From the NCBI GenBank assembly GCA_943348755.1, contig CALQYS010000001.1:1467-65466 (forward strand): 64,000 nt of DNA, written 5' to 3'. This document shows, piece after piece, positions 4,225 to 37,508 of the stretch. Source of the stretch: Candidatus Nomurabacteria bacterium (GTDB lineage: Bacteria > Patescibacteriota > Minisyncoccia > Phycocordibacterales > UBA9973). A program made the translations under genes and the position numbers. Under the pieces are notes generated by a model, which was given only the letters and a program-made list of their open reading frames with translations, was not told the origin of the DNA and ran no database searches. Position 1 is the stretch's first letter, and every line of letters starts with the position of its first letter.

Positions 4225-4245
4225 GGGTTTTCGTTTTATCTAAAT

Positions 4246-17056: not shown

Positions 17057-17061
17057 AAAAA

Positions 17062-17088
17062 ATCCCTCTGGAAAGAGGGATTTTTTTA
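17062..17088 (+). terminator. Rho-independent terminator after rpsI (ATCCCTCT-GGAA-AGAGGGAT plus T7)
   Basis: Perfect 8-bp stem with tetraloop followed by TTTTTTT. Confidence 0.7.
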
Positions 17089-17097
17089 TGTTAGAAT
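17089..17097 (+). promoter_or_regulatory. Extended -10 promoter TGtTAGAAT placed 6 nt before the grpE ATG (leaderless transcript)
   Basis: TG at 17089-17090, hexamer TAGAAT at 17092-17097, ATG at 17104. Confidence 0.45.
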
Positions 17098-17103
17098 GCA
17101 CAC

Positions 17104-17730
17104 ATGAGTGAAGAACCTGCCCGCAATGCTTCGCATAACGATGCAGGCGGGGAAAATAAAAAAGACCCAGAAAATACTTTAGATAATTCTGAAGTTGTTG
17201 AAATGGAATTCAACGAAGATGGCGAGGAGGATCTAAAGAAAACTTTAAAGAAACTTCGAGCCGATTTGAAGGAAGCTAAGGCTCAAAAGGAAGAATATTT
17301 GACTGGCTGGCAGAAAGAGCGGGCGGAGTTTGCTAACTATAAAAAGGGGGAAGACGACCGCAAGGCGATGTTCTCGGAATCAGTGCGTGAGAGGATACTT
17401 GCTCGTTTTTTGACCGTTATCGATAGTTTCAACATGGCTTTTGCTAATAAGGAAGCATGGGAAAAGGTAGATGCAAACTGGAGACAGGGGGTGGAATATA
17501 TTTATGGACAGATGAACACTATATTTGAAGAATATGGGGTAAAGCCAGTGGGAATTGTGGGAGAGACTTTCGATCCGAACATCCACCAGCCGATCGAGAT
17601 GGTTTCGACAGACCAAAAAGAGCAAGACCACAAAGTTTCCGTTGTCATCCAAAAGGGCTACAAGTTGGGCGGCAGAGTGATGCGTCCAGCCAGGGTGAAT
17701 GTTTATGAGTACAAAGAAAGAGTTGAGTAA
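17104..17730 (+). CDS. grpE: Nucleotide exchange factor GrpE
   Basis: Acidic N-terminus, coiled-coil, C-terminal GrpE fold motifs (RFLTVIDSF...GVKPVGIVGETFDPNIHQPIEMV). Confidence 0.85.
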   Translation: MSEEPARNASHNDAGGENKKDPENTLDNSEVVEMEFNEDGEEDLKKTLKKLRADLKEAKAQKEEYLTGWQKERAEFANYKKGEDDRKAMFSESVRERILARFLTVIDSFNMAFANKEAWEKVDANWRQGVEYIYGQMNTIFEEYGVKPVGIVGETFDPNIHQPIEMVSTDQKEQDHKVSVVIQKGYKLGGRVMRPARVNVYEYKERVE

Positions 17731-19372
17731 AATTTGTACCGATTGTAAGGAAGAATTCATAATAAATTCTGGTGATTTAGATTTATACAAAAAAGTTGGG
17801 CTAGAGTTGCCGACTTCTTGTTTTCTTTGTCGAATAAAGCACTTATTTTCTTTTTGGACTTTTGGAAAATTTCGCAAAGGCAAGTCTGATCTCTCGGGGG
17901 AAAGTTTAATCACCGTCTTGCCGAAAAAGAGCCGATATCCTATTTATAAACTCTCCGAGTGGCATAGCGACAAATGGGATGCCATGGATTATGGAGCAGA
18001 TTACGATCCCAAAAAGTTATTTTTTGAACAATTTAAAAATCTTCAGGAAAAAGTACCCAGGCCGCATCAAAATGGCACTAAAAATACTGGTTGTGATTGG
18101 TCTGAGGATGTCTGGAGTTCCAAGAACTGCTATCTGTCACGTTCAATGTTGAACTGTGAAGATTTATTTTATTCATATAGAAATTTGAATGTAAAAAATT
18201 CTATTGATGTAGTAATTTGTTTTGATTGTGAAAAATGTTACAGCTCTGGAGAATGCCATAATTCATATAGACTTTTCTATTCAAGGCATTCTCGCGATTG
18301 TATAGATTCATATTTCCTTTACGACTGCCGCAATTGCCAGAATTGTTTCATGTCATGGAATCTTCGCAATAAATCTTATTGCATAGAAAATGTTCAGTAT
18401 TCCAAGGAAGCTTATGAGGAAAAATTGAAGTCTTTTAATCTGGGCTCTTATGAATCTGTCCAATCTTTAAAACGCCGTTTTGAACTTTTGGCGGGGGAGG
18501 AAGCAGTACATAGAGAGAATTTTAATTTGAATGCATCTAATTCGAGTGGCAATTATCTAATAGATGTTAAAAATTGCCAAAATTGCAATACTATATCGGA
18601 GTCTGAAGATTCTGCAAACTGTGTTCGTAATCTCGGATTGAAATCCAGCATCGATATTGTCGGTTCTCAGCATCCGGAATTATCAGGTAATTGTTGTTTT
18701 TGTCAGGGCAAAATATATTCTCTCAAATACTCTTTTGGGTCCACTTCTCGCTATTCCGAATATCTAGACTTATGCATAGAATGCGAATATTGCTTCGGCT
18801 GTGTTGGTCTCAAAAAGAAAAAATATTGCATTTTGAATAAACAATATACCGAAGACGAATACGAGGCGCTGAAAAATAAAATTATTGCGGAGATGAAGAA
18901 TAGGGGAGAATACGGTAAATTTTTGCCTTATTCCATGAGCGCCGGACCCTTCAATTTCTCTAACGGATTCTTTTATTTTCCGGAGACAAAAAAAGAAGAT
19001 ATCTTGAGACTTGGCGGATACTGGGAAGACATAGACGAAACTCACATAGAAGGCACTGCCACAAGTGAATTGCCCGATTCCATTTCTGATGTCGAAGATG
19101 ACATCACTACCAAAGCTCTTATCTGTCCTGAAACTGGCTGGCGTTTCAATATATCTCAAAACGAGCTTATTTTTTATAGAGAAAACAATATACCGTTACC
19201 TAGGTATCACTTTGACGTAAGGATAAAAAAGGCTCTAAAATATCTTACTGTTCTTCAATCATATCCATATAAATGTTTTTACTGCCAAAAAGATATAATG
19301 GCTTATTATCCACCAGAGTGGGGTTATAAGAAGATTGCTTGCGAGAATTGTTACAAACAAAATATAGCCTAG
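17699..19372 (+). CDS. Cys-rich zinc-ribbon repeat protein, family member B1 (divergent)
   Basis: CTDCKEEF..YKKVGLELPTSCFLCR N-terminus; W.SDKWD..DYG.DYD..K.FFEQ; duplicated K[SK]YCI.N.QY[ST]KE.YE; overlaps the grpE end by ~30 nt. Confidence 0.65.
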   Translation: MFMSTKKELSKICTDCKEEFIINSGDLDLYKKVGLELPTSCFLCRIKHLFSFWTFGKFRKGKSDLSGESLITVLPKKSRYPIYKLSEWHSDKWDAMDYGADYDPKKLFFEQFKNLQEKVPRPHQNGTKNTGCDWSEDVWSSKNCYLSRSMLNCEDLFYSYRNLNVKNSIDVVICFDCEKCYSSGECHNSYRLFYSRHSRDCIDSYFLYDCRNCQNCFMSWNLRNKSYCIENVQYSKEAYEEKLKSFNLGSYESVQSLKRRFELLAGEEAVHRENFNLNASNSSGNYLIDVKNCQNCNTISESEDSANCVRNLGLKSSIDIVGSQHPELSGNCCFCQGKIYSLKYSFGSTSRYSEYLDLCIECEYCFGCVGLKKKKYCILNKQYTEDEYEALKNKIIAEMKNRGEYGKFLPYSMSAGPFNFSNGFFYFPETKKEDILRLGGYWEDIDETHIEGTATSELPDSISDVEDDITTKALICPETGWRFNISQNELIFYRENNIPLPRYHFDVRIKKALKYLTVLQSYPYKCFYCQKDIMAYYPPEWGYKKIACENCYKQNIA

Positions 19373-19374
19373 AC

Positions 19375-21069
19375 ATGAAACCTGAAACAAAAAATTGTAA
19401 AAATTGCCAAAAAGATTTCGTAATCGAAGCTGAAGATTTTAATTTTTACGAAAAGATAAAAGTTCCACCGCCCACGTGGTGTTTCAAATGCCGACAGCAT
19501 AGACGTTATGCTTGGAGAAATGAGCGGAATCTTTACAGGCGTAATTGTGATCTGTGCGGTAAAAGCACGGTGACTATCTATTCTCCTAATAAGCCTTACA
19601 AAGTCTATTGCCATGAATGTTGGTGGGGAGACGGCTGGGATTTTACTTCATACGGACGGAATTTTGATTTTTCTCGTCCCTTTTTCGAACAATTTGCCGA
19701 ACTTCAGCATGAAGTACCCCGCATGGCGCTTTTAAACAAAAATAGCGTGAACTCAGAATACACAAATCACTCGGCGGACAATAAAAATGTCTATCTGACT
19801 TTTTCCTCTTTTGGTAGTGAGAATGTCATGTACAGTACTTGGGTTTTTTACTCGCGGGATTGTATGGACTGTAGCTTTATTTATGAAAAAGGGGAACGTC
19901 TGTATGAAACCATAGACTCTCGTTCTTGTTATCAGTGCCAGTACAGCCTGTTTTTGAAAGATTGCTCGTCTTGCTACTATTGTTACGATTGTCACGGATG
20001 TAACGAATGTTTTATGTCTTCTAACTTACGCAATAAAAGTTATGTATTTAAAAATAAACAATACACTCGCGACGAGTATCTAAAGAAGATGAAGGAATAT
20101 GAAATGTCCTCTTTTACCGTTCGCCAGGGTCTCGAAAAGGAATTTAAAGATATGCTAGAAAACATTTCTGTGCATCGTTACGTTTTGAGCGAGAGAAATA
20201 TAAACTCTATTGGATCTATGATTTTTGACTGTAAAAATGTGCTTCAGTCTTTTGAGGTGAACAAAGGAGAAGACCTTAAATATTTTTATGGAGGGCTTGA
20301 GGCTAAAAGCTGTATAGATGTGTATCATGCGGGGCTTAATTTGGAGCTTTGTTATGAACTCCATGGATGCACCCGTCTTTCAAACTGTCAATTTTGTCAT
20401 CTTTGTTATGATAATATGAACGTGATGTATTCTGATACTTGTCAGAATAGCCAGAATCTTTTTGGCTGCGTCTCTGTGAAAAAGGGGGAGTATATGATTT
20501 TTAATAAAAAATATTCTAAAGCTGATTATGAAGCTCTTAAAGAAAAGATTGTCGAGCATATGAAGCAGACAGGGGAGTACGGTGAATTTTTCCCGCCACA
20601 GATTGCCCCAGTGTATTATAATGAGACACAAGGGAACTTGTATATGCCGATGACCAAAGAGGAAGTACTAGCTAAGGGTTGGCATTGGGAAGATAATATC
20701 CTGGGAACTTTCGGCAAGGAAACTATTTCTAGTTCATCTATTCCAGACAAGATAGAAGATGTGCCAGATTCCTACCTCAATGAAATCTTTGCCTGCGCAG
20801 ACTGTTCAAAAAATTATAACATAACTAGAAACGAGCTACTTTTCTATCAAAAAGAGAATCTTCCATTTCCCAGAAAGTGTCCGAATTGCCGTTACAAGAG
20901 AAGGTTTGATCTGCGTCCAAAGAGAGAGCTCTGGCATCGCACTTGCATGTGCGATAAAAAGCACAAGAACCACGATGGGTCTTGTAAGGTCGAGTTTGAG
21001 ACATGTTATGCTCCCAACCGCACAGAAAAGATATACTGTGAGAAATGTTACCAGCAAGAAGTGTACTAA
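19375..21069 (+). CDS. Cys-rich zinc-ribbon repeat protein, family member B2
   Basis: MKPETKNCKNCQKDFVIEAEDFNFYEKIKVPPPTWCFKCR...; C-terminal CPNCRYKRR..LWHRTCMC..IYCEKCYQQEVY; 2-nt gap to B1. Confidence 0.7.
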   Translation: MKPETKNCKNCQKDFVIEAEDFNFYEKIKVPPPTWCFKCRQHRRYAWRNERNLYRRNCDLCGKSTVTIYSPNKPYKVYCHECWWGDGWDFTSYGRNFDFSRPFFEQFAELQHEVPRMALLNKNSVNSEYTNHSADNKNVYLTFSSFGSENVMYSTWVFYSRDCMDCSFIYEKGERLYETIDSRSCYQCQYSLFLKDCSSCYYCYDCHGCNECFMSSNLRNKSYVFKNKQYTRDEYLKKMKEYEMSSFTVRQGLEKEFKDMLENISVHRYVLSERNINSIGSMIFDCKNVLQSFEVNKGEDLKYFYGGLEAKSCIDVYHAGLNLELCYELHGCTRLSNCQFCHLCYDNMNVMYSDTCQNSQNLFGCVSVKKGEYMIFNKKYSKADYEALKEKIVEHMKQTGEYGEFFPPQIAPVYYNETQGNLYMPMTKEEVLAKGWHWEDNILGTFGKETISSSSIPDKIEDVPDSYLNEIFACADCSKNYNITRNELLFYQKENLPFPRKCPNCRYKRRFDLRPKRELWHRTCMCDKKHKNHDGSCKVEFETCYAPNRTEKIYCEKCYQQEVY

Positions 21070-21071
21070 AT

Positions 21072-22778
21072 ATGAAACCAAAAACAAAAAATTGTAAAAA
21101 TTGTAAAAAAGACTTCGTGATCGAAACTGAAGATTTTGATTTTTACGAAAAAATAAAAGTACCGCCGCCGACTTTTTGTCCAGAATGCCGAAGAGTTCGT
21201 CGTTTTGCGCAGACGAATGAAACTGTGCTTTACAAGCGCAAGTGTGACTTATCTGGTAAAGATATTTTCAGCATGTATCCGTCCGATGCGCCATTTCCAG
21301 TTTATGAAACCGACGTTTGGTACTCAGATCAGTGGGATCCTTATCAATACGGTCTAGATTTCGATGAAAATAGGCCATTTTTTGATCAATTTTTTGAACT
21401 TCAGAATAAGGTCCCGCGAATGTCTCTAGTGCGACAAGGCTTGGCGGTCAACAGTCCTTATGCTCATAGAGTCACGGACCCAAAAAATTCATATATGACT
21501 TTCCGGGCCTCCTATCCAGAAAATTGTTTGTTTGTTTACAACAGCAATTATTCTAAAGATTGCACTGACTCCAACTGGATTTTTAATTCAGAGCTGTGTT
21601 ATGAATGCGTAAATGTGCAAAATTGCTACAATGTGAAGTTTAGTCAAGAAGTCAAAGATTGTCGGGACTCCTCTTTTTTATACGCTTGTCGAAATTGTTC
21701 TGATTGTACCGCTTGCGTGAATTTGGTAAACCAAAAATACTGCATTTTTAATGAGCGTTATTCAAAAGAGGAATATTTTAAAAAATTGGCAGAATTAAGA
21801 ATAAATAGTCACTCGGGGATCTCCGAAATGGCAGAGAAATTAAATGTGTTTCGGAAGAAATTCCCACAGCGGGCGATCGTTTCAGTAAAATCAGAAGATG
21901 TCTCAGGCAACTGGTTTGCTGGATGTAAAAATGTGCATCAATCCTTTGACTGCATCAATGTCAAAGACGGCAAACATCTTTTCATGGTTTTTTCCGCTGA
22001 AGACTGCATGGATTATTATGAATGGGGCAATAAAGCGGAACAAATTTACGAATCAGTGAATTGTGGTCTGAACATCGCCCGGCTTTATTTTTGCAACCAG
22101 TGCTGGATGGGTGCGACTGACTTGTATTATTGTAATACCTGTCCCGGTGCTCGGAATTGTTTTGGGTGCGTAGGATTAAAGAAGGGGGAGTATTCGATAC
22201 TAAACAAAAAATATTCTAAAGAAGAATATGAGATTTTAAAAGAAAAAATAATAAAACAAATGCAAGAAATGCCATTTAAAGACAAAAGAGGCATAAGTTA
22301 TTCTTTTGGGGAATTTTTCCCCGAAATGTTTTCTGATTTTGCTTACAACGAGACTATTGCCAACGTCTTCTTTCCACTATCCAAAGATGAAGCTTTGTCT
22401 CGTGGCTATAAATGGAAGGATAAAGAGAAGAAGAATTACCAAGCCACTCTGAAGCCGAGCGATTTGCCGGAAACTATCGGGGAAGTGAAAGACTCCATTT
22501 TAAATGAAGTTATCGAATGTGAAGAAAAGGATGATCCAAATTCGGTCGGGGCTTTTCGAATCACTCAGAACGAATTAAATTTTTATCGGAAGATCGATTC
22601 GCCCTTGCCAAGAGCTTGCTTTGACATTCGCCATTTGCGTAGGATGAACAAACGTCCGAAACTTAAATTTCTCCGACGAAATTGTTCTAAATGCAGCTCA
22701 GAAGTAGAAACTATTTATGATAAAGATTACGCGCCGATAATTTATTGCGAGAAGTGTTATCAGCAAGAGGTATATTAA
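21072..22778 (+). CDS. Cys-rich zinc-ribbon repeat protein, family member B3
   Basis: MKPKTKNCKNCKKDFVIETEDFDFYEKIKVPPPTFCPECR...; C-terminal IIYCEKCYQQEVY; 2-nt gap to B2. Confidence 0.7.
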   Translation: MKPKTKNCKNCKKDFVIETEDFDFYEKIKVPPPTFCPECRRVRRFAQTNETVLYKRKCDLSGKDIFSMYPSDAPFPVYETDVWYSDQWDPYQYGLDFDENRPFFDQFFELQNKVPRMSLVRQGLAVNSPYAHRVTDPKNSYMTFRASYPENCLFVYNSNYSKDCTDSNWIFNSELCYECVNVQNCYNVKFSQEVKDCRDSSFLYACRNCSDCTACVNLVNQKYCIFNERYSKEEYFKKLAELRINSHSGISEMAEKLNVFRKKFPQRAIVSVKSEDVSGNWFAGCKNVHQSFDCINVKDGKHLFMVFSAEDCMDYYEWGNKAEQIYESVNCGLNIARLYFCNQCWMGATDLYYCNTCPGARNCFGCVGLKKGEYSILNKKYSKEEYEILKEKIIKQMQEMPFKDKRGISYSFGEFFPEMFSDFAYNETIANVFFPLSKDEALSRGYKWKDKEKKNYQATLKPSDLPETIGEVKDSILNEVIECEEKDDPNSVGAFRITQNELNFYRKIDSPLPRACFDIRHLRRMNKRPKLKFLRRNCSKCSSEVETIYDKDYAPIIYCEKCYQQEVY

Positions 22779-23321
22779 TTACTTTCCGAAAGTTTCAAAA
22801 AGGAATTTTTTAGTTTCTTCGTCTACAAATTCTGTGACAATGATCATCATCTCAGTGGTCAATCCTAAATCTTTTTTGATATTCGTGAATAAGTGCTCAA
22901 AAGGGAAGGGGGAGATCCATGCAGAATTTTTAAGACAGACGAAACCAGCTTTCTTCAAAAGGTAGCGCAGACTCTCACGTTCACTTTTTCTATTCTCTGG
23001 AAGGTCGAGTAAAATAATTCTCCAGAATCCATCCCATGTGGTGTTGACTAGGGTTGTATTGCTATCCAGTTTTAGGCTGTGAACCTTCTTCTTGCCCTCT
23101 TTTGTCAGGCGGGCATATTCACTATGTGGAGAGGCTATTTGTTCTATTAGACCACCCTCCTTGAGTCCTTTTAATGAGCGTGTAATGGCGTAATTAGCGT
23201 TTTTCGAGCCACCCTCCATGTTTATCTTATCTGTGATTTCAGGTAGGGAAATAGCCGGTTTTTGCCCTAAAATCTCTAATATTTTATTAGAATATTGGAT
23301 TTTCTGGTTTTTTCTTGACAT
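22779..23321 (-). CDS. PaaX-family-like winged-helix transcriptional regulator (short form)
   Basis: N-terminal wHTH; C-terminal W.GFWRIILLDLPE..R..LR..L...GF..L..S.WISP signature of the PaaX C-domain. Confidence 0.5.
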   Translation of the reverse strand: MSRKNQKIQYSNKILEILGQKPAISLPEITDKINMEGGSKNANYAITRSLKGLKEGGLIEQIASPHSEYARLTKEGKKKVHSLKLDSNTTLVNTTWDGFWRIILLDLPENRKSERESLRYLLKKAGFVCLKNSAWISPFPFEHLFTNIKKDLGLTTEMMIIVTEFVDEETKKFLFETFGK

Positions 23322-23378
23322 GCATATATATTATAGTATATATTGTCTTTTGACAAGTATTTTGTGGTCACGAAAAAC

Positions 23379-23407
23379 TTGCTAAAAATAATAGATGGGT
23401 ATATAAT
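23379..23407 (+). promoter_or_regulatory. Sigma-70-type promoter TTGCTA-N17-TATAAT upstream of dnaK
   Basis: -35 at 23379-23384, -10 at 23402-23407; ~120-nt leader to the dnaK ATG; no CIRCE or HAIR element seen. Confidence 0.35.
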
Positions 23408-23526
23408 AGGTTCACAAAAATAATTATTAGCATTGCTCGAAAAAAAATCAAACTTTCCTGCGTTAGGTCATAAGGATAAGGCTCTGGGAAAGTTTATTTT
23501 TTTCTCGCAATTAATTTAAAAAATTT

Positions 23527-25428
23527 ATGAGTAAAATAATAGGTATAGATTTGGGTACAACAAATTCAGCGGTCGCATTTATCGAAGGAGGTGCGCCGAA
23601 GATTATTGAAAATATTGAGGGCAATCGCACGACTCCCTCTGTCGTGGCGACCGCGAAAAATGGTGATCGCATTGTCGGCCTTCTTGCTAAAAGACAGGCA
23701 ATCACGAATCCAGAGAATACGATTGCAGAAATTAAGCGCTTCATGGGGCACCGCTTTGATGACCCAGAAGTGCAGAAAGATAAAACGACATCATCGTTTA
23801 AGATTGAACAAGCAGATGGCGGCGGAGTGAAAGTAAAAATGCTGGATAAGTTTTATCGACCAGAGGAAGTGTCTGCGATGATCTTGCAAAAGATAAAGGC
23901 GGACGTGGAAGCTAAGCTCGGAGAAAAAATTACGGAAGCAGTTATCACTGTGCCTGCGTACTTTAACGACGCGCAAAGAAAGGCGACAAAGGATGCGGGA
24001 GCTATTGCGGGCCTCGATGTAAAGAGAATCATCAACGAGCCGACAGCGGCAGCACTCGCTTATGGTTTCGATAAAAAGAAAAATGAAAAAATAGTAGTCT
24101 ATGACTTTGGTGGGGGTACTTTCGACGTGTCTGTGCTCGAGATCGGTGGAGATGTGATCGAAGTGAAGTCTATCGATGGGGACAGTCACCTGGGTGGAGG
24201 CGACATTGACCGCTTGATCGTCAAATGGATCGCGGAGCAATACAAAAAAGAAGCTGGCATAGATGTGACGAAGGATCCTCTAGCTCATCAGAGGCTTCGT
24301 GAGGCGGCAGAAAAGGCCAAGCACGAACTTTCTACGACTATGGAGACGGAAATAAACATTCCATTCATTACTTCCGATGCCACTGGTCCGAAGCACCTTC
24401 TTATGAAGATGTCGCGCGCGACACTTGAGACCTTAACCAAAGATTTGATTGATCGTTCTATCGAGATCACAAAAAGGGCCCTCAATGCTTCTCCATTTAA
24501 AATGAATGAGATCAATGAAGTTATCATGGTGGGCGGACAGACAAGAATGCCACGAATCGTCGCTGCTGTTAAAGAACTTTTCGGCAAGGAGCCAAACATG
24601 TCTATCAATCCTGACGAAGTGGTGGCGCTTGGTGCAGCGGTGCAGGCCGGTGTGCTCGCTGGTGATGTGCGCGATGTTCTCTTGCTCGACGTTATCCCTC
24701 TATCTCTTGGCATTGAAACTCTTGGAGGAGTGGCGACAAAGTTAATCGAAAGAAATACAACTATCCCTTCTTCTAAATCACAAGTCTTTTCTACTGCAGC
24801 GGATAATCAAACTTCCGTGGAGATACATATAGTGCAAGGTGAGCGCCCAATGGCTTCGGACAATCGCTCTCTCGGACGATTTATCTTAGACGGAGTACCA
24901 CCAGCACCTCGCGGTATGCCCCAGATCGAAGTTTCATTCGATGTGGATGCGAACGGTATCTTAAATGTTGCAGCGAAAGATAAGGCTTCTGGCAAGAGTC
25001 AGTCTATCAAGATAGAAGCAAGTTCTGGACTCAAAGATGAAGATATAAAAAAGATGCAACAGGATGCAGAGCTTCATGCGACGGAAGATAAAAAGAAAAA
25101 AGAAGTGATTGATCTCAAAAATACTGCAGAGATGATCATCTACACTGCGGAGAAAGCTGTAAAAGATAATGGTGACAAAATTGATGCCAGTTTGAAGGAT
25201 ACTGTAAACGCGAAAATCACTACACTTCGAGGTTTGAAAGACGGCACTGATGGCGACGCGATCAAGAAGGCGACAGAAGAGCTTTCTGCCGAAATGTCTA
25301 AAATAGGGGAAGCGATGGCGAAGGCTGGTAAGGCTGGACCTGCCGGCGGAGCCCCAGAAGAACAGCCAGCGGAAGTAAAGGATGCGGAGTTTAAGGAGGG
25401 GAAGAAGGATGAAGGCGAGAAGAAATAA
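23527..25428 (+). CDS. dnaK: Molecular chaperone DnaK (Hsp70)
   Basis: [30 protein letters not shown] motifs; acidic/Gly-rich C-terminal tail. Confidence 0.97.
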
Positions 25429-25442
25429 AATTACTAACTAAA

Positions 25443-25466
25443 AGCCCCCATTCGGGGGCTTTTAGT
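25443..25466. terminator. Bidirectional rho-independent terminator (AGCCCCC-ATTC-GGGGGCT plus TTTTAGTTT)
   Basis: Perfect 7-bp GC-rich stem flanked by A-run and T-run; lies between dnaK (+) and a convergent minus-strand ORF. Confidence 0.75.
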
Positions 25467-25468
25467 TT

Positions 25469-26889: not shown

Positions 26890-26993
26890 CGTGAAAGATC
26901 AAGCTTTTATGCTTACTAGAATTATATCACAAGAAATAAAAATTAATATAAAGTCTTGTTAGCAAAAAGTTGATTATATTGTATAATAACGAG

Positions 26994-29078
26994 ATGGAAT
27001 TGCCGGAAATACCTATAAATAAAGAGATAACATATCTTGGTATCACTACTTATCGGGACAAGAATCAGCTTTTTGGCATCAAGCGCAAGGATAGGCGCCA
27101 GCATGTTTATCTTCTTGGTAAATCCGGTACTGGTAAATCCGTGCTGATGTTCAACATGATCATCCAGAACATCAAGAATGGTGATGGAGTTTGTATGGTT
27201 GACCCGCACGGGGAAAATGTCGAAGCAGTTCTCTCCGCTATCCCTCCGCATCGCATCAAAGATGTCGTTTATTTTAATCCAGCTGACGCTGATCATCACA
27301 TCGGGTTCAACGTTCTTGAACTTATTGATCCGCAATACAAGCATTTGGTGGCTTCGGGGCTCATGGGTATTTTCACGAAGATCTGGGCGAATGCGTGGAG
27401 CGCCCGCATGGAATATATTTTGAATAATGCTATCTTGGCCCTACTCGATACTCCGGGTACGACTTTACTTGGAATTCCACGTATGCTTGTCGATAAGGAT
27501 TACCGCCAAAAAATAATTTCAAATTTAAAAGACCCGGTTATCAAGGCTTTTTGGGTCCACGAATACGAAGCTTGGCAAGATAAATTTAGAAATGAAGCGA
27601 TCGCTCCGATTCAAAACAAAGTCGGCCAGTTTTTATCTACTTCTATCATCCGCAATGTCGTCGGCCAGTCCAAAAGTACGATAAATATTTTTGACATGAT
27701 GAATGATGGCAAGATTTTCTTGGTGAACGTTTCCAAAGGGCGTATTGGTGAAGACAACTCTGGTCTCTTGGGGGGCATGATCATCACTAAAATCCAGCTA
27801 GCGGCCATGGAACGCGTGCGTATCCCCGAGGAATCCCGTAAAGACTTCTATCTCTTTGTAGACGAATTCCAAAACTTCGTCACCGATGCTTTCGCCGGTA
27901 TTTTATCTGAGGCTCGAAAATATAGACTGAATCTGACAGTGGCGCACCAATATACTGCCCAATTAGTCGTGGATAAAAGTTCTGCGGTGCGTGATGCGGT
28001 CTTCGGCAACGTGGGCACGACCATAGTCTTTAGAGTTGGTGCCGATGATGCAGAATTTTTAGAGAGTGAATTTGAGCCGGAATTTACCCCTCAAGATATA
28101 GTGAATTTGCCAAACTATAAGATTTATTTGAAATTAATGATCGACGGGGTCACTTCTCGTCCCTTTTCTGCTAAAACCTTGCCACCTCTTGTGAAAACTG
28201 GTGATAAAAAGATTGAAGAAGAAGTAATTAGATCTTCACGTGCTCTGTATTGTAGAAGCAAAGAAGTTGTAGAGAAAGAAATTAACGATTGGAGTGGGAT
28301 GTCGCTTGGCAATGAGTCTGATACTGGAAACAGCGTTTTAGAAAAATTCCCCGCAATTTGTTCATTTTGTAAAAAAGAAACGACCGTGCCCTTCAAGCCG
28401 GATCCAGGCCGAGCAGTATATTGTAAAGAATGTATTGCAAAGATAAAGTCTGGTGAGGTAAAAGTAGAAAAAAGTTCAGAAAATCAGATCAGACATGATG
28501 AAACCACCTTCTTCAGACCATTGGCTGATTTAGGTATAGAATTTAAACAAAATAATGGAACAAATGGAAACGGTGAGAGATATCCGCAAAGGGTGGACCA
28601 TCACATGGATAAACCTCATCCTGGGATGAAGAAATTTGTCCCTACAGCAACCAAGCCGGCGCCATTTTCGGCCAAGCCAGGGATTATCGGGGCTATTAAA
28701 AAAGTTTTCGTTAAAAGTGGGGTTTCAGCACCAGCCAAGGCTCCTGTTCCCAAAAAGCCAGCTAAAGATAATACTGAACTCAGAGAATTTTTAAATAAGA
28801 CACTAGCCGCAAACGCTCCCACCTCGACTCCGATTAGTAAGAGCGTCGTGAGTCCGGTAGTTAAAAATACTGGACCAGCGCCGGTTTCCTTAGACACTCT
28901 CAAAAACCCTGTGAAGCAGGCGGATAAAATAAACACATCTCCTAAGGATCGTGCTGCTAGTCCGGAAGATATGAATAAGTTGAAAGATTTAATCTCGTCC
29001 GCCTCTACTACAGGCTCCGGCGAGACAAAGAAGGTGAAAGAAGTGCCTGAAGACGTTCTGCGGAAAATTTTAGAATAA
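26994..29078 (+). CDS. FtsK/HerA-superfamily P-loop ATPase (DUF87/HerA- or TraD-like) with C-terminal ClpX-like C4 zinc finger and K/P/A-rich tail (ATPase 1)
   Basis: FGIKRKDRRQHVYLLGKSGTGKS (Walker A), VDPHGE, DFYLFVDEFQNF (Walker B), LNLTVAHQY; C-terminal CSFCKKETTVPFKPDPGRAVYCKECIAK; leaderless from TGTATAAT at 26980-26987. Confidence 0.75.
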   Translation: MELPEIPINKEITYLGITTYRDKNQLFGIKRKDRRQHVYLLGKSGTGKSVLMFNMIIQNIKNGDGVCMVDPHGENVEAVLSAIPPHRIKDVVYFNPADADHHIGFNVLELIDPQYKHLVASGLMGIFTKIWANAWSARMEYILNNAILALLDTPGTTLLGIPRMLVDKDYRQKIISNLKDPVIKAFWVHEYEAWQDKFRNEAIAPIQNKVGQFLSTSIIRNVVGQSKSTINIFDMMNDGKIFLVNVSKGRIGEDNSGLLGGMIITKIQLAAMERVRIPEESRKDFYLFVDEFQNFVTDAFAGILSEARKYRLNLTVAHQYTAQLVVDKSSAVRDAVFGNVGTTIVFRVGADDAEFLESEFEPEFTPQDIVNLPNYKIYLKLMIDGVTSRPFSAKTLPPLVKTGDKKIEEEVIRSSRALYCRSKEVVEKEINDWSGMSLGNESDTGNSVLEKFPAICSFCKKETTVPFKPDPGRAVYCKECIAKIKSGEVKVEKSSENQIRHDETTFFRPLADLGIEFKQNNGTNGNGERYPQRVDHHMDKPHPGMKKFVPTATKPAPFSAKPGIIGAIKKVFVKSGVSAPAKAPVPKKPAKDNTELREFLNKTLAANAPTSTPISKSVVSPVVKNTGPAPVSLDTLKNPVKQADKINTSPKDRAASPEDMNKLKDLISSASTTGSGETKKVKEVPEDVLRKILE

Positions 29079-29079
29079 A

Positions 29080-30741
29080 ATGAATCAAGAATGTAAAAAG
29101 TGCAAACAAAATTTCACCTTAGATAAAGATGATCTGTCTTTTTATGAAAAGATGAAAGTGCCGACACCCAAAGTCTGTCCAGACTGCCGTTTCAAAATGC
29201 GCGCGATGTTTCGCAATGAAACCACTCTTTACTCTGGGCGCAAATGCGCGCTTTGCGGTAAGGCACTGATTTCAATGTATAATCCGAAATCCCCATATAT
29301 TATTTACTGTCCAGACTGTTTTTATTCTGAAAAATGGGAGCCAAGAGACTATGCAAGAGACTATGATTTTAACAGGCCATTTTTAGAGCAAATGAAAGAA
29401 TTTCTACTGTCAGTTCCGAAAATAAGTCTATTCCTTAATTTTTCTGATGGCAAAAACGTGAATAGCGAATATTCGAATATGGCTGGAGGTCTCAAAAATT
29501 GTTATCTGGTTTTCAACACCAGTCCTGCGGAAGACTTGATGTATTCTAGGGGTATCCGGCATGGTAATGATTCATCGGATATATATTTTGGCACCAGTTT
29601 CGAGAGATGCTATGAGTGTGTGAATGTTCAACAATCTGCTGATATCCTATATGGTAAGAATATTACTGGAGGGGTGGATTGTGCTTTTGTTTCAAACTGT
29701 CGGGGGCTTACAAATTGCTTTGGCTGTGTAAATCTAAATAACAAGTCCCATTATTTCCTCAATGAGCCCATGGATGTAAAGGAATACAAAAAAAAGGTTT
29801 ACGAAATATTAGGCAGTTATAAAAAAACAGAAGAATTTAAAAAAGAATTTGGAAAATTTACACTTGGTTTCCCGGTACGAGAAAATAATAACATAAAAAA
29901 TGTTAATTCAACCGGAGATTATTTGTTTGAATGTAAAAATGTTCACGATTCCTTTGAGGCTGCCGGCGCAGAAGATTCCAAGTACCTGTTTTCTTCTAAA
30001 GGAGTTAAAGATTCCTTAGGCATTATCGGTTATGGCACACAATCAGAAAAATTACTCGAGGTTGTGGCTACAGGATATTCCAGCAACATAGTGGGTACGT
30101 ATGCCGCTGATAATTGCCGTGATATCTTGTATGGATTTTACGTCAAGAATTGTAAAGATTGTGTTGCTTGCGACGCTCTCAAAAACGGTAAATACTCAGT
30201 TTTTAATAAAGAATATTCCAAAGAAGAATATGAAAAAATTCGCGAACATATAATCAATGAGCTAAAAGAGAAGGATCTACATGGTCTTATGATGCCGCAA
30301 GAACTTGCCCCCTTTGCTTATAATGAAACAGTTGCACAGGAAAATTTTCCACTTACCAAAGAGGAAATATTGTCGCAGGGTTTCCGCTTCGAGGATGACA
30401 TACAAAAGACAGAAGGCAAAGAGACCATACAACCTCAGGATATTCCTGATCATATAAAAGATGTGTCAGATTCCATCACTACTGAGATTCTAGCTTGCAT
30501 AAATTGCAATCGTAATTATAAAATCACAGAGCAAGAGCTTTTATTTTACAAGAAAATGAATCTTTCGATACCAAGGAAGTGTTTCTATTGCCGACATCAA
30601 GATCGCATCATTCGTCGAGGGCCATATAAATTCTGGGATAGAAATTGCGCTAAATGTGGAAAGGGGATTACGACCAACTATGCCCCCGATCGGCCGGAAA
30701 TAGTGTATTGTGAAAAGTGTTATCAGCAAGAAGTGTATTAA
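29080..30741 (+). CDS. Cys-rich zinc-ribbon repeat protein, family member C1
   Basis: MNQECKKCKQNF..FYEKMKVPTPKVCPDCR; C-terminal CFYCRHQDRIIRRGPYKFWDRNCAKC...YAPDRPEIVYCEKCYQQEVY; starts 1 nt after the ATPase 1 stop. Confidence 0.7.
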   Translation: MNQECKKCKQNFTLDKDDLSFYEKMKVPTPKVCPDCRFKMRAMFRNETTLYSGRKCALCGKALISMYNPKSPYIIYCPDCFYSEKWEPRDYARDYDFNRPFLEQMKEFLLSVPKISLFLNFSDGKNVNSEYSNMAGGLKNCYLVFNTSPAEDLMYSRGIRHGNDSSDIYFGTSFERCYECVNVQQSADILYGKNITGGVDCAFVSNCRGLTNCFGCVNLNNKSHYFLNEPMDVKEYKKKVYEILGSYKKTEEFKKEFGKFTLGFPVRENNNIKNVNSTGDYLFECKNVHDSFEAAGAEDSKYLFSSKGVKDSLGIIGYGTQSEKLLEVVATGYSSNIVGTYAADNCRDILYGFYVKNCKDCVACDALKNGKYSVFNKEYSKEEYEKIREHIINELKEKDLHGLMMPQELAPFAYNETVAQENFPLTKEEILSQGFRFEDDIQKTEGKETIQPQDIPDHIKDVSDSITTEILACINCNRNYKITEQELLFYKKMNLSIPRKCFYCRHQDRIIRRGPYKFWDRNCAKCGKGITTNYAPDRPEIVYCEKCYQQEVY

Positions 30742-30744
30742 ATA

Positions 30745-32490
30745 ATGAAAGAAGAAACGAAAAATTGTCAAAACTGTAAGAAAAATTTCGTAATCGAATC
30801 GGAAGATTTTAATTTTTATGAAAAAATGCAAGTTCCACCACCGACTTTTTGCCCAGAGTGTCGGCTGATTCGCAGATTTATCTGGAGAAATGAAAGGAAT
30901 TTATACAAAGACGTTTGTGAACTTTGTAAAAAAAATATAATCTCAGTTTATGCCCCCGAGAGTCCTTATGTGGTCTATTGTCCAGATTGCTGGAAGGGGG
31001 ACGGTTGGGACCCCATCAGTTATGGGCAGGATTATGACTTCTCAAAACCATTTTTTGAACAATTTAATGAATTGTTAAAAAAAGTTCCCCGATCTGCTTT
31101 TCATCAGACCAATGTTATCAATAGTCCCTATGCTAATTATTCAGAGGATATAAAAAATGTCTATCTTTCTTATTCGATTATTCACGAATGCGAAAATGTC
31201 TTTTATTCTAGACTGGTTGATCATTCAAAACAAATTTTAGATTGTTGTGACTTGAGTTATTCAGAGATATGTTATGAAAACGTGAGTTGCAAAAAGAATT
31301 ATAATACTAATTTTGCCTATTTTTCTCGGAATGTCATAGACTCTACGTTTGTATATGATTGTATAAATGTATCGAACTGTTTTCTTTGTACAAATTTACG
31401 CAATAAGCAGTATTGTTATAAAAACAAACCCCATTCTAAGGAGGAATATTTAAAGATCATAAAAGATTATAATCTGGGTTCTCGTGATGGCCTGGATAAG
31501 GCAAAGAGTGAGTTCAAGGAACTGTACAGTCATGCCATACATCGTTTTACTCACCTTATCAATACGACAGATAGTACGGGGGAAAATCTGTATAATTGTA
31601 GGAATGTTAAATATTCTTTTAATGTGGATGATGGTGAAAACTCCAAGTATATTTTTCGTTCTCCCAGCGTTAAGGATTCGATGGATTCTTCACATTTGGG
31701 TGGGTCAGAACAAGTGTATGAGTATATGAATGGGGGAGCTACAGGTAGTCAATTCTTAAAATTTTGCATTAATTTAAAGCCAGCCAATAACAATGTAGAA
31801 TACTCAGATTATTGCGGTTCTGTTTCTAATGTATTTGCTTCTACTGGTGTCAGAAATAAAAAATACATTATTTTTAATAGGCAATATGAAAAGAAAGAGT
31901 ATGAAGCCCTTGTTTTAAAAATCAAAAGTCACATGGACGAAATGCCCTATGTGGATAAGAGGGGTAGGATATACAAATATGGAGAATTTTTCCCTAGTGA
32001 GCTTTCACCTTTTGCTTATAATGAAACTTTGGCTCATGAATATTTTCCTAAAAACAAAGATGAAATTGAATCAATGGGTTTTCGTTTTAGAGAAAGGGAA
32101 AAACGGAGTGAAATAAAAGCTATAAGCGCACAAGCGATCGGATCAAATATCAATGAAGTTTCTCCAGAAATCACTGATGAACTTATCGCTTGCGACAATA
32201 ATGGTAAAGAAGAAACACTCTGCACTTTTGCCTTTAAAGTATTACCAGACGAGTTTGCTTCCTATAAAAAAGCTAATTTACCCATACCAACTAAATGTCC
32301 TAATTGTCGTTATTTTGAACGTACCAAATTTGTTAATCCTCTTAAACTTTGGCATCGATCTTGCATGTGCTCCCAAAAGAGTCATAATCATAAAGAAGGG
32401 AGGTGTTCTAATGAATTTGAAACGAGCTATGCGCCAGACAGGCCCGAAATAATCTATTGTGAACGTTGTTATCAGCAGGAAGTTTACTAA
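30745..32490 (+). CDS. Cys-rich zinc-ribbon repeat protein, family member C2
   Basis: MKEETKNCQNCKKNFVIESEDFNFYEKMQVPPPTFCPECR; C-terminal CPNCRYFER..LWHRSCMC..YAPDRPEIIYCERCYQQEVY. Confidence 0.7.
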   Translation: MKEETKNCQNCKKNFVIESEDFNFYEKMQVPPPTFCPECRLIRRFIWRNERNLYKDVCELCKKNIISVYAPESPYVVYCPDCWKGDGWDPISYGQDYDFSKPFFEQFNELLKKVPRSAFHQTNVINSPYANYSEDIKNVYLSYSIIHECENVFYSRLVDHSKQILDCCDLSYSEICYENVSCKKNYNTNFAYFSRNVIDSTFVYDCINVSNCFLCTNLRNKQYCYKNKPHSKEEYLKIIKDYNLGSRDGLDKAKSEFKELYSHAIHRFTHLINTTDSTGENLYNCRNVKYSFNVDDGENSKYIFRSPSVKDSMDSSHLGGSEQVYEYMNGGATGSQFLKFCINLKPANNNVEYSDYCGSVSNVFASTGVRNKKYIIFNRQYEKKEYEALVLKIKSHMDEMPYVDKRGRIYKYGEFFPSELSPFAYNETLAHEYFPKNKDEIESMGFRFREREKRSEIKAISAQAIGSNINEVSPEITDELIACDNNGKEETLCTFAFKVLPDEFASYKKANLPIPTKCPNCRYFERTKFVNPLKLWHRSCMCSQKSHNHKEGRCSNEFETSYAPDRPEIIYCERCYQQEVY

Positions 32491-32526: not shown

Positions 32527-34269
32527 ATGCACCAAGAAGAAACGAAAAATTGTCAAAATTGTAAGAAAAATTTCGTAATCGAATCGGAAGATTTTAATTT
32601 TTATGAAAAGATAAAAGTTCCGGCACCGACTTGGTGTCCGGAATGTCGAGCCATGCGCAGATTGATCTGGCGCAACGAACGTTCTCTCTATCACAACACC
32701 TGTGCTTTTTCTGGCAAAAATCTTATATCCATGTTTTCTCCGGAAACTAAATTAGTGATGTACGATCATGACATTTGGTGGAGCGATAAATGGGATCCGC
32801 TTACTTATGGACAGGATTATGATTTTTCTAGGCCATTTTTCGAACAATACAAAGAATTGTTGCAACGAGTACCACTTATGAATTTGGGCAATATAAATTG
32901 CTTACAAGGCGAATATGGCAATCACAATACTGATTGCAAAAAATTTTACTTAGCCTATGCATGTTATGGAAGTGAAAATATTTCTTATAGCCAAGGAACG
33001 GTGGGTGTGAAAGACTCTATAGATCTTTATACCGTAATGAAGTCAGAAAAGTGTTATGAAAATGTAACATGCACTGGCCTTTATCAAACCCATTTCAGCT
33101 ATGACAGTGATGATTCCATCGACTCTGCTTTTTTGACTTGTTGCATAAACTTACAAAATTGTTTGGGTTGCATCAATCTTCGCCATAAAAGCTATTGTAT
33201 TTTCAATAAGCAATATTCGAAGGCTGATTATGAAAATGAACGAGCCAAATATGATTTTGGAAGTTATCAGGCTTTAGAAAATTTCAAAGAAAAATATAAT
33301 GATTTTATTAAAACCGAACCTAGGCGATTTGCTAGTATTTTAAAGTCTACAAATGTAACTGGTGACAATATTATAAATTCAAAAAATAGTAAAAATATTT
33401 TTGATGTTTATGGTGATGTTGAGGATTCAAAATATGTAGCTCATGTGATGGATCTGAAAGATAGTTATGATTTATATGGTGGGGGAATTGCCTCTCTTTT
33501 ATATGAAGGTGTTGACGAAGGCGTCGATGCTTTTAAGCAGTTTTTTGGTCTCCTTACCCACAGCTGTCTCGAAACTAACTATACTTATATGTGTTACGGC
33601 TCCGAATACTTGTTCGGCTGCATTGGGCTTAGAAACCAAAATCACTGTATTTTGAATAAAAAGTATTCTAAAGAGGAATACGAAAAACTAATGCCGAAAA
33701 TGATTGAACACATGAATACCGTGCCTTACGTCGACAGTCTCGGCAGAATTTACCGATATGGAGAATTTTTCCCCACTGATTTATCTCCGTTTGCTTATAA
33801 CGAAACAATTGCGGGTGAGTATTATACTTTAAACAAGAAAGAGGCGAAAGGTTATGGTTTCAAATGGAAAGAGAAAGAGGAAAGGGATTACAAAATAGAA
33901 ATTAAAACTGAAAATCTGCCAGACCATATCAAAGAAGTTGATGAAAGTATTATTGGTAAAATTATCGGCTGTTTACATAAGGGCGAATGCGAAGAGCAGT
34001 GTACTGAGGCATTTAAAATATTGGATTCAGAGTTCCAATTTTATAAAAAAAATAATTTTGCGCTTCCAAGGCTCTGCCCAAATTGCCGTCACTTTCAGAG
34101 ATTAAAAAAGAGGAATCCGATAAAGCTTTGGCATAGGTCTTGTATGTGCGAAAAGCAAGGACATTTTCATGGTCAGGAAAAGTGCGAAGTGCAATTCGAA
34201 ACTAGCTACGCGCCAGACCGTCCGGAAATAATATATTGCGAGAAATGTTATCAGCAGGAAGTGTATTAG
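32527..34269 (+). CDS. Cys-rich zinc-ribbon repeat protein, family member C3
   Basis: MHQEETKNCQNCKKNFVIESEDFNFYEKIKVPAPTWCPECR (5' ~80 nt nearly identical to C2); C-terminal IIYCEKCYQQEVY; an alternative upstream start exists at 32500. Confidence 0.7.
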   Translation: MHQEETKNCQNCKKNFVIESEDFNFYEKIKVPAPTWCPECRAMRRLIWRNERSLYHNTCAFSGKNLISMFSPETKLVMYDHDIWWSDKWDPLTYGQDYDFSRPFFEQYKELLQRVPLMNLGNINCLQGEYGNHNTDCKKFYLAYACYGSENISYSQGTVGVKDSIDLYTVMKSEKCYENVTCTGLYQTHFSYDSDDSIDSAFLTCCINLQNCLGCINLRHKSYCIFNKQYSKADYENERAKYDFGSYQALENFKEKYNDFIKTEPRRFASILKSTNVTGDNIINSKNSKNIFDVYGDVEDSKYVAHVMDLKDSYDLYGGGIASLLYEGVDEGVDAFKQFFGLLTHSCLETNYTYMCYGSEYLFGCIGLRNQNHCILNKKYSKEEYEKLMPKMIEHMNTVPYVDSLGRIYRYGEFFPTDLSPFAYNETIAGEYYTLNKKEAKGYGFKWKEKEERDYKIEIKTENLPDHIKEVDESIIGKIIGCLHKGECEEQCTEAFKILDSEFQFYKKNNFALPRLCPNCRHFQRLKKRNPIKLWHRSCMCEKQGHFHGQEKCEVQFETSYAPDRPEIIYCEKCYQQEVY

Positions 34270-37472: not shown

Positions 37473-37500
37473 TTGACCAAAATCTATCACCGGGTATAAT
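37473..37500 (+). promoter_or_regulatory. Promoter TTGACC-N16-TATAAT 8 nt upstream of the dnaJ ATG
   Basis: -35 at 37473-37478, -10 at 37495-37500. Confidence 0.4.
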
Positions 37501-37508
37501 GAAATTAT

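Follow-up and report, generated by a model that had tools for sequence, protein, structure and literature searches.

In a 64-kb stretch of DNA from a Candidatus Nomurabacteria genome, the whole of which is called the window below, the genes of the Hsp70 system (grpE, dnaK, and dnaJ) are interleaved with those of an uncharacterized family of cysteine-rich proteins, here labeled CR, and with two genes for ATPases resembling type IV coupling proteins (T4CP_A and T4CP_B). The Hsp70 genes are themselves ordinary; what appears to be new is their conserved interleaving with an uncharacterized family of the candidate phyla radiation (CPR), the coupled grpE-CR1 pair, the association of CR genes with orphan T4CP genes, and the pairing of a PaaX-like gene with a palindrome at dnaK. 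We favor, at evenly balanced confidence, a reading in which the CR proteins functionally belong with the orphan T4CP-like ATPases and, in this clade, have operons that sit within the Hsp70 locus and take part of their expression from it, because these ATPases are the commonest neighbors of CR genes and one of them shares the CR zinc ribbon. The source genome is of the Nomurabacteria type within Paceibacteria (CPR); the nearest reference locus belongs to a Candidatus Nomurabacteria metagenome-assembled genome (MAG), and the exact CR5 protein was found on a 185-kb ENA metagenome contig.

The window holds seven CR paralogs, numbered CR0 to CR6. Along the + strand, rpsM-rpsK-rpsD-rpoA-rplQ-rplM-rpsI is followed by grpE, CR1, CR2, and CR3; then come the PaaX-like gene (- strand), dnaK, a 1.5-kb spacer, T4CP_A, and CR4-CR5-CR6; and after CR6 lie rsmE (- strand), T4CP_B, pfkB, and dnaJ. 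The first triplet, CR1 to CR3, occupies positions 17705-22778, with 555-568 amino acids (aa) per protein and 2-nt gaps between the genes; the second is bracketed by the two TrwB/VirD4-like ATPase genes. For T4CP_A, the list of open reading frames (ORFs) gives a TTG start at 26970, and the ATG at 26994 is used here. The features of the locus are as follows.

17057..17086, unstranded: terminator-like hairpin 3' of rpsI, flanked by A and T runs
17089..17097, + strand: extended -10 box of grpE, TGtTAGAAT; the ATG lies 7 nt past the box, a leaderless geometry
17104..17730, + strand: grpE (PF01025, 2.5e-37)
17705..19372, + strand: CR1, the grpE-coupled paralog, 555 aa, 32 Cys (alternative ATG at 17699)
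19375..21069, + strand: CR2, 564 aa, 37 Cys
21072..22778, + strand: CR3, 568 aa, 32 Cys
22779..23321, - strand: short PaaX-like regulator, 180 aa, with a predicted winged helix-turn-helix (wHTH) and a PaaX_M/Cas2-like domain (PF20803, 1.7e-19)
23353..23382, unstranded: 30-bp palindrome, a candidate operator, over the -35 boxes of the PaaX-like gene and dnaK
23379..23407, + strand: promoter-like site of dnaK, TTGCTA-17-TATAAT, giving a leader of ~113 nt
23527..25428, + strand: dnaK (PF00012, 6.7e-243; TIGR02350, 905 bits)
25436..25467, unstranded: terminator-like palindromic hairpin of 14 pairs directly 3' of dnaK
26959..26987, + strand: promoter-like site of T4CP_A, TTAGCA-17-TATAAT, with the ATG 7 nt past the -10 box
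26994..29078, + strand: T4CP_A, a soluble P-loop ATPase resembling TrwB/VirD4/HerA, bearing a CxxC-x17-CxxC zinc ribbon
29080..30741, + strand: CR4, 553 aa, 28 Cys
30745..32490, + strand: CR5, 581 aa, 29 Cys, the paralog chosen for modeling
32527..34269, + strand: CR6, 580 aa, 29 Cys (alternative start at 32500)
35042..36544, + strand: T4CP_B, a second, shorter T4CP-like ATPase lacking the zinc ribbon (PF01935, PF10412, PF12696)
37473..37500, + strand: promoter-like site of dnaJ, TTGACC-16-TATAAT, 8 nt before the ATG
37509..38594, + strand: dnaJ, class A with a zinc-finger domain (PF00226, PF00684, PF01556, i.e., the J, CXXCXGXG, and C-terminal domains)

The association with the ATPases emerged from 80 reference-genome loci that were recovered with an alignment of the paralogs (fetched loci, from reference genomes or metagenomes, bear L-numbers) and in which CR genes stand in runs of 1 to 10 copies. 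Unbiased clustering of the ORFs in these loci identified the T4CP-like ATPase as the dominant neighbor (50 genes in 27 loci by this clustering, 27-28 of the 80 overall), lying directly 5' of a CR gene in 21 cases; it is followed by DnaJ (12 loci) and DnaK (11 loci), then by the same-block genes cysS, a permease gene, and hyp200, with CutA1 and ribonucleotide reductase (RNR) at 8 loci each. About a dozen of the 80 share the order dnaK-T4CP-CR(n)-T4CP-dnaJ; a T4CP gene follows dnaK in 9 of the 11 loci with enough sequence, and one in the position of T4CP_B stands directly 5' of dnaJ in 10 of 12. In RAAC4_OD1 (L037), the PaaX-like gene, dnaK, and dnaJ are contiguous, from which we take dnaK-dnaJ to be an ancestral pair, and it is exactly this dnaK/dnaJ junction that the cassette occupies elsewhere, which suggests that a T4CP-CR-T4CP cassette was inserted into it.

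Both ATPases score above the gathering threshold of PF10412 (2.1e-10 for T4CP_A and 8.5e-06 for T4CP_B). T4CP_A additionally matches PF23477 (2.6e-11) and TIGR04272 (46.5 bits), and TrwB in the PDB (1e9r; 1.8e-05) over the Walker A region; its zf_Tbcl_2 ribbon, of the same type as those at the CR termini, scores 43.5 bits versus a cutoff of 27. No transmembrane (TM) segment was predicted in either protein (maximum 19-residue hydropathy of 1.13 in T4CP_A and 0.97 in T4CP_B), and PADLOC returned only generic HerA/mad8 matches for them. Genes for VirB4, mating-pair formation, and relaxase were not recognized in the ORF lists of the window, over which no VirB4 or relaxase model was run directly, nor did they appear among the commonest neighbor clusters scanned against Pfam. 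This accords with a preprint, drawn on here in part, that counts 5713 VirD4-like genes in 2918 CPR genomes, 148 of them near virB4, and raises possible exaptation (bioRxiv 10.1101/2025.01.22.634366); the part concerned makes no mention of Cys-rich partners of these proteins.

The ATPase-CR pairing also occurs in a second context, sigma/HARE-hyp436-T4CP-CR(n), at L013, L014, L021, L042, and L054, with its hyp436-T4CP-CR part at L007, L036, and L043. Since hyp436 adjoins T4CP genes and CR arrays in 7 of the 80 reference loci, it could be the membrane partner of the TM-less ATPases. A related cassette with the seventh paralog lies upstream in the window (1872-6024).

1872..2900, + strand: protein with sigma70 region 4 and a HARE-HTH (helix-turn-helix) domain, first gene of the upstream cassette (PF04545, 7.9e-13; PF05066, 2.5e-07)
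2914..4224, + strand: hyp436, a membrane protein outside any Pfam family, its single TM helix lying at the N terminus (19-residue Kyte-Doolittle hydropathy, KD19, of 2.48 at residues 12-30)
4246..6024, + strand: CR0, the seventh Cys-rich paralog, 592 aa, 39 Cys

The CR proteins contain 28-39 Cys each (5.0-6.6% versus 0.56% in neighboring proteins), and identity of the paralogs to CR0 ranges from 31 to 47%. Searches recovered >6368 homologs, all annotated as "hypothetical" and essentially all from Paceibacteria-type MAGs; a profile search returned 5555 representatives of clusters at 50% identity, and arrays reach 10 CR genes. No family covering these proteins was found in Pfam, NCBIfam, or PADLOC, PADLOC gave no defense-system match for CR or hyp436, and our literature searches on the CR family, on HrcA in CPR, and on PaaX-dnaK links recovered no prior description. 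The proteins have ~580 aa, with predicted treble-clef or CxxC-x17-CxxC zinc ribbons at both ends and a center of two beta-solenoid-like Cys-ladder repeats. The architecture is symmetric (two zinc ribbons, two Cys-ladder copies, two zinc ribbons), each ladder segment ending in a conserved "FGCxGLxxKxYCIxNKxYSKEEY" helix. The termini give subthreshold matches to the treble-clef models zf_Tbcl and zf_Tbcl_2 (16.7-21.3 bits versus cutoffs of 24-27), and in the first ribbon, as in the last, all four Cys show 95-100% conservation. Small proteins of Methanosarcina with the same CxxC-x17-CxxC motif have been shown experimentally to bind zinc (PMC12704099), which makes zinc binding by the CR termini plausible by analogy. 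The ladder, in which Cys is often replaced by V, I, or S in paralogs other than CR1, looks structural rather than metal binding. In the CR1 subfamily, the second and third ribbons are entirely lost, and the central CxxCxxC ladders are kept at ≥90% conservation.

An AlphaFold (AF2) model of CR5 reached a mean predicted local distance difference test (pLDDT) score of 85 and a predicted template-modeling (pTM) score of 0.86. Foldseek searches with it yielded zero PDB matches at E ≤ 0.001 (the best being weak matches to left-handed beta-helix enzymes, with TM scores of <0.1) and, among viral structures, local zinc-ribbon matches only; a PDB sequence search with the CR profile had a best E of 0.064. 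No TM segments were found in the CR proteins, the HPD motif is present in 0 of the 7 paralogs, and there were no matches to PF00226 or PF00684 (DnaJ_CXXCXGXG). Given the lack of TM segments and HPD, they are predicted to be cytoplasmic and not to be J proteins.

Some further neighbors of CR genes deserve mention. A gene for CutA1 (divalent-ion tolerance) adjoins CR genes at its 8 reference loci (e.g., L077, 9574-10002) and, at L163, lies between CR1 and the PaaX-like gene (8917-9222); thioredoxin-like genes are found near CR genes in 5 loci. These neighbors may hint at metal or redox biology. CR-family loci also occur in MAGs labeled Aenigmatarchaeota, Burkholderiales, and Gammaproteobacteria (L080, L053, and L060); since L053 shows the full Paceibacteria-type gene order, the labels most likely reflect binning contamination.

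The part of the CR complement that would be driven from the Hsp70 locus is best seen at grpE. The start of CR1 (17705 or 17699) overlaps the grpE stop codon (17728-17730) by 26-32 nt. A metagenome scan with CR1 recovered 80 loci at 57-77% identity, 67 of them with upstream sequence: grpE lies immediately 5' of the CR1 ortholog in 58 of the 67, one has grpE-CR-CR1, and seven have a T4CP gene instead. Stop and start overlap, by 14-29 nt, at 44 of 64 grpE-CR junctions. The order rpsI-grpE-CR(n)-PaaX-like(-)-dnaK is also present in the reference loci L002, L059, L064, and L076, and the overall layout in more than 60 independent metagenomic contigs and at least four reference genomes; three of three loci chosen via the PaaX-like protein, independently of CR, have the same gene order. 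CR1 orthologs form a distinct, monophyletic, long-branched subfamily with grpE-linked members in both deep branches. Among relatives, anywhere from 0 to 4 CR copies separate CR1 from the PaaX-like gene, so that the conserved core is grpE-CR1; CR2 and CR3 are array members with orthologs in nearer relatives only (for CR2, 73-83% identical in L082-L094). Positional CR orthologs are 65-83% identical and about as conserved as GrpE (in L087, GrpE is at 79%, CR1 at 75%, CR2 at 81%, and CR3 at 79%). The gene junctions of the grpE-CR1-3 unit are free of terminator-like sites, the two + strand matches of the terminator scan falling inside the grpE and CR3 coding sequences. From this arrangement, grpE and CR1-3 very probably form one transcription unit, and their coexpression is well supported.

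These results bear on a sequence-only reading of the same DNA, which had proposed a chaperone locus split by a Cys-rich array. Coordinates and Pfam matches agree with its three Cys-rich paralogs between grpE and dnaK and its convergent PaaX-like gene. The overlap of CR1 with the grpE stop, taken there as a sign of cotranscription, recurs among relatives and is accompanied by the 2-nt gaps of the array. The leaderless grpE promoter it proposed reappears in four reference genomes (TGcTAATAT or TGcTAAAAT, 6-8 nt before the ATG, in L002, L059, L064, and L076), and the preceding rpsI terminator hairpin is conserved in L059, L064, and L076. Its second triplet does lie between dnaK and dnaJ, an interval that also contains two T4CP-like genes, rsmE, pfkB, and the 1.5-kb spacer. 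Its figure of ~45 Cys per protein was too high, and its premise that grpE and dnaK are normally adjacent is true of many bacteria but not all, grpE being unlinked in Escherichia coli. The synteny comparison it called for gave a divided answer: the layout is conserved within the clade, and across the family an Hsp70-system gene is present in only 19 of the 80 reference loci.

Control of dnaK appears to be a separate matter. The stop of the PaaX-like gene abuts that of CR3, so these two genes are convergent, and the PaaX-like gene and dnaK are divergent, 205 bp apart. In the PaaX-like protein, PaaX_M (PF20803) covers residues 94-171 of 180; the C-terminal PaaX domain is lacking, and the full-length model TIGR02277 is matched at 28.1 bits versus a cutoff of 264.55. 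Homologs numbered 2066 (the best 120 at 75-87% identity), and a PDB sequence search with the protein returned nothing meaningful. There are no paa (phenylacetate) genes in the window, and the conserved neighbor of the PaaX-like gene is dnaK, in 37 of 37 loci. Alignment of the PaaX-like/dnaK intergenic regions yielded the palindrome consensus ACAAGTaTTTnGyGrnCrCnAAAtACTTGy, the arms of which cover the -35 boxes of dnaK (23379-23384) and of the PaaX-like gene (23351-23356, minus strand). The promoter-like site of the latter (TTGTCA-17-TAATAT; 23321-23356, minus strand) ends 7 nt before its ATG. In 2.0 Mb of sequence (the window plus the loci), the degenerate palindrome pattern has 37 matches, every one in a PaaX-like/dnaK region (37/37), with 0 upstream of grpE, dnaJ, T4CP, or CR genes and a single copy in the window; the palindrome is also present in L030 and L037, both of which lack the CR insertion. 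A conserved palindrome over the promoters of both regulator and neighbor is the arrangement expected of an autoregulated divergent pair; most probably, the PaaX-like protein serves as a repressor for dnaK specifically and controls its own gene as well, and it would bind the palindrome and be relieved under stress.

The known heat-shock operators were sought throughout the 64 kb. CIRCE (TTAGCACTC-N9-GAGTGCTAA) had 0 matches at up to 3 mismatches, and HAIR (CTTGAGT-N7-ACTCAAG) had 2 at 3 mismatches (4100 and 40757), versus 2.6 expected by chance, neither near a chaperone gene. No HrcA-like protein is evident in the ORF lists of the window, over all of which no HrcA model was run. Instead of a contiguous hrcA-headed grpE-dnaK-dnaJ operon, we found rpsI and a terminator preceding grpE and other genes intervening. 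As judged from its signals, the locus is not one Hsp70 operon: a separate promoter-like site precedes each of grpE, dnaK, T4CP_A, and dnaJ, and a terminator-like hairpin follows dnaK. At grpE, the PaaX-like gene, T4CP_A, and dnaJ, the -10 box ends 7-8 nt before the start with no Shine-Dalgarno sequence (the -10 stretches being 17089-17104 for grpE, 26982-26994 for T4CP_A, and 37495-37509 for dnaJ); with at least four genes of this geometry, leaderless mRNAs may be common in this organism. The sequence-only reading was thus right that no CIRCE or HAIR operator lies upstream of grpE or dnaK, and the search for a regulator site that it recommended led to the palindrome as candidate operator. Its placement of the CR genes inside an Hsp70 operon finds no support, given the separate promoter-like sites and the hairpin, nor does its suggestion of heat-shock coregulation: the one operator-like element that is conserved belongs exclusively to the PaaX-like/dnaK pair, and because of this no shared heat-shock regulon is visible.

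Some observations around dnaK stand apart from these questions. Convergent CR3/PaaX-like transcription was considered as a conserved antisense device and rejected, the gaps ranging from -4 to >2000 nt and many relatives having a hairpin or extra genes between the two. The dnaK leader is structured (dG of -24.1 kcal/mol, z of -3.0). Its hairpin at 23432-23511 (+ strand), flanked by A and U runs, has a near-identical counterpart in L089 only; in other relatives, the leader is short or contains GC-rich hairpins of unrelated sequence. Attenuation, temperature sensing, or insertion of a repeat could each account for the element. When 16-40 kb was scanned with Rfam, the leader matched neither thermometer nor riboswitch families, and the only hits were a spurious snoRNA match and a weak tRNA match. 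The latter, at 26809-26883 (- strand; 31.2 bits, gathering threshold 29) in the dnaK/T4CP_A spacer, has a long variable region and ends in ...CACTCCA; ARAGORN made zero tRNA calls across the 64-kb window, and the sequence may be an unusual or degenerate type II tRNA. The same spacer holds a 67-aa ORF with 10 Cys (26538-26741, + strand), with TATAAT 6 nt before its ATG in leaderless geometry and a homolog in none of the fetched loci. At the far end, short forms of DnaJ occur at L001 (17167-17820), L050 (15690-16361), L052 (9301-9960), L061 (1678-2328), and L053 (7323-8186); in those of 216-223 aa, the CXXCXGXG zinc finger and one C-terminal domain are missing, and the 287-aa form retains the zinc finger. 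A CR gene directly follows dnaJ in 3 of the 5 short forms versus 1 of 8 full-length ones, small numbers that are suggestive only.

Taken together, the favored reading envisages a conserved, lineage-specific superlocus in which CR operons would have brought together two originally separate segments, the rpsI-grpE junction and an ancestral cluster of PaaX-like(-)/dnaK/dnaJ. Its transcription units would be grpE-CR1-CR2-CR3, read from the leaderless extended -10 promoter with translation of CR1 coupled to that of grpE; dnaK by itself, the -35 box of its promoter falling within the palindrome that it shares with the divergently oriented PaaX-like gene; T4CP_A-CR4-CR5-CR6, with a leaderless promoter of its own; and T4CP_B(-pfkB) and dnaJ(-hyp200) as separate units with their own promoter-like sites. 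At dnaK, the PaaX-like repressor would replace HrcA/CIRCE or HspR/HAIR. CR expression would be tied to the Hsp70 genes through operon structure (at grpE) and position (at dnaK and dnaJ) rather than a shared stress operator, and the CR proteins would act with the TM-less TrwB/VirD4-like ATPases as cargo, adaptors, or coassembling partners.

Several observations weigh against this reading. Of the 99 CR runs in the reference loci, 43 consist of one gene, and many lack an ATPase gene within 10 kb; the CR-ATPase link is thus frequent and not obligatory. The zinc-ribbon matches of the CR proteins fall under the Pfam and NCBIfam cutoffs, and the central 200 residues of the CR5 model (130-330) are of moderate confidence (pLDDT 57-80). 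The AF2 model of the PaaX-like protein (pLDDT 52) is too uncertain for a fold search. Promoter-like matches are not commoner in the window than in shuffled sequence (37 versus 30.6), and for that reason individual promoters rest on position and conservation in relatives. Finally, the gene order of the whole rpsM-to-trpS region is conserved in the clade, and the grpE-CR1 adjacency is, as a consequence, no better conserved than the terminator-separated rpsI-grpE adjacency, presumably a nonfunctional one; synteny alone therefore cannot decide between the readings.

This last point opens the way to a neutral explanation, in which a single insertion in the clade's ancestor placed the CR/T4CP operons beside housekeeping genes of high expression, where they simply remained, and the grpE overlap would be a by-product of compaction in a very small genome, with no functional tie to chaperones implied. 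The collinearity of the whole block speaks for it, as do the tight or overlapping junctions general in the window (T4CP_A/CR4 at +1, CR4/CR5 at +3, and typA with its neighbors). An ABC-transporter gene (fused permease and ATPase) sits between the CR array and the PaaX-like gene in L002, L114, L116, L124, L125, and L126, showing that the block tolerates unrelated insertions; together with CutA1 and a ceramidase gene, likewise accommodated in the block, and the varying 0-4 CR copies after CR1, this favors neutrality, and CR arrays in other lineages adjoin RNR, a pilB-type ATPase, FtsZ, a penicillin-binding protein (PBP), or the rpsM cluster. Against this, grpE and CR1 stay together even where CR1 identity has dropped to ~57% and the remaining array members come and go, CR1 is specialized (with its own conserved Cys pattern and two zinc ribbons lost), and the cassette is bounded precisely by dnaK (9/11) and dnaJ (10/12). 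We regard neutral synteny as unlikely, if the strongest of the alternatives.

Close behind it, and likewise improbable in our estimation, is a direct partnership with DnaK/DnaJ/GrpE, the idea of the sequence-only reading, in which CR1, and perhaps other CR proteins, would serve these chaperones as a dedicated cofactor or depend on them as an obligate, abundant client; in a variant, the CR proteins could be metal-cluster proteins needing Hsp70 for folding or metal loading, by analogy with Fe-S transfer by HscA/HscB. Selection for stoichiometric coexpression would then explain why CR genes come after all three Hsp70-system genes, and they do so at three separate junctions: after grpE, after dnaK via a T4CP gene, and after dnaJ in L016, L052, L053, and L061. 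The kept grpE/CR1 overlap, the grpE linkage in both deep branches of the specialized subfamily, and the retention of dense CxxCxxC(xxC) ladders in CR1 are all consistent with such a partnership. So is the enrichment of CR copies near Hsp70 genes, 55 of 235 (23%) lying within 8 kb of one, versus ≤~6% expected by position if a genome of ~0.8 Mb is assumed; but the enrichment is largely confined to one clade with a collinear rpsM-to-trpS region, so that these loci are not independent. Further, 61 of the 80 CR reference loci have no Hsp70 gene within 10 kb, 7 of the 67 CR1-type genes follow a T4CP gene rather than grpE, and no operator is common to CR genes and dnaK. The proteins themselves offer no J domain, HPD motif, or match to the DnaJ zinc finger, and the apparently structural nature of the ladder in other paralogs also argues against the metal-cluster variant.

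More ambitious, and to our minds decidedly doubtful, is the idea that CR proteins, TM-less ATPases, hyp436, and Hsp70 make up a CPR-specific chaperone-coupled translocation or assembly system, with CR1 as a so far undescribed Hsp70 cofactor, coupled to GrpE, or a cargo adaptor and the PaaX-like pair replacing HrcA/CIRCE in Paceibacteria. Mis-assembly, a chimeric contig, or a recent mobile island, to which we leave next to no probability, is refuted by the recurrence of the gene order across independent contigs and reference genomes, and agrees neither with the GC content of the CR regions (0.35-0.40, within the range of the window), nor with the lack of integrase and transposase genes, nor with the age of paralogs that have diverged this far from each other and retain close positional orthologs.

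CPR bacteria (Patescibacteria) account for a large share of bacterial diversity, and most of their lineage-specific protein families are without a known function. The locus offers a way into one of the largest of these families (>5500 clusters at 50% identity), tying it by operon to grpE, by position to dnaK and dnaJ, and to thousands of orphan VirD4-like ATPases. The PaaX-like protein and its 30-bp palindrome are in turn a candidate for heat-shock control of dnaK where CIRCE and HAIR were not found. If the chaperone link proves to be only positional, the CR/T4CP module would still be defined, with its placement in the Hsp70 locus confined to one clade.

The locus may be set beside several known systems. 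It shares with the Bacillus-type hrcA-grpE-dnaK-dnaJ/CIRCE operon its set of three chaperone genes, their order and common strand, a dedicated repressor gene at the locus, and a long inverted-repeat operator at a promoter; it differs in that CIRCE is lacking, the genes are noncontiguous with separate promoters, and the candidate repressor is PaaX-like and divergent, with a palindrome of another sequence at dnaK only. The HspR/HAIR dnaK operon of Actinobacteria and Helicobacter likewise has a dnaK-linked autoregulated repressor acting at a promoter inverted repeat, but HspR is of the MerR type and encoded downstream in the operon, whereas the protein here is a short, divergently encoded wHTH-PaaX_M protein, with no HAIR beyond chance. 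PaaX itself, a GntR-type repressor of phenylacetate catabolism, has the same central Cas2-like PaaX_M domain after a predicted N-terminal winged helix, and a palindromic target; unlike it, the protein of the window has 180 rather than ~300 aa, no C-terminal domain, no paa genes nearby, and dnaK as its putative target. T4CP_A and T4CP_B share the P-loop domain of the type IV coupling proteins VirD4, TrwB, and TraD and lack their N-terminal TM domain. Like the orphan VirD4-like proteins of Patescibacteria, as described in the part of the preprint drawn on (bioRxiv 10.1101/2025.01.22.634366), they have TrwB/VirD4 nucleotide-binding domains and do not lie beside virB4; unlike those, they have no TM domain, one of them contains a CxxC-x17-CxxC ribbon, and they bracket CR arrays. 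The spacing of this ribbon at the CR C terminus, in the second N-terminal ribbon, and in T4CP_A is that of the small proteins of Methanosarcina (TIGR04272/PF23477; PMC12704099), which are stand-alone and of <70 aa, whereas the CR proteins have ~580 aa, up to four ribbons, a large central domain, and subthreshold matches. The zinc finger of DnaJ and the HscA/HscB Hsp70 system, the analogy behind a direct partnership, involve Cys-rich metal centers in proteins that act with Hsp70; the CR proteins differ from them in having no CXXCXGXG repeats, J domain, or HPD motif and in a locus with no Fe-S assembly genes, and it is with the TM-less relatives of VirD4 and TrwB that we tentatively associate them in function.

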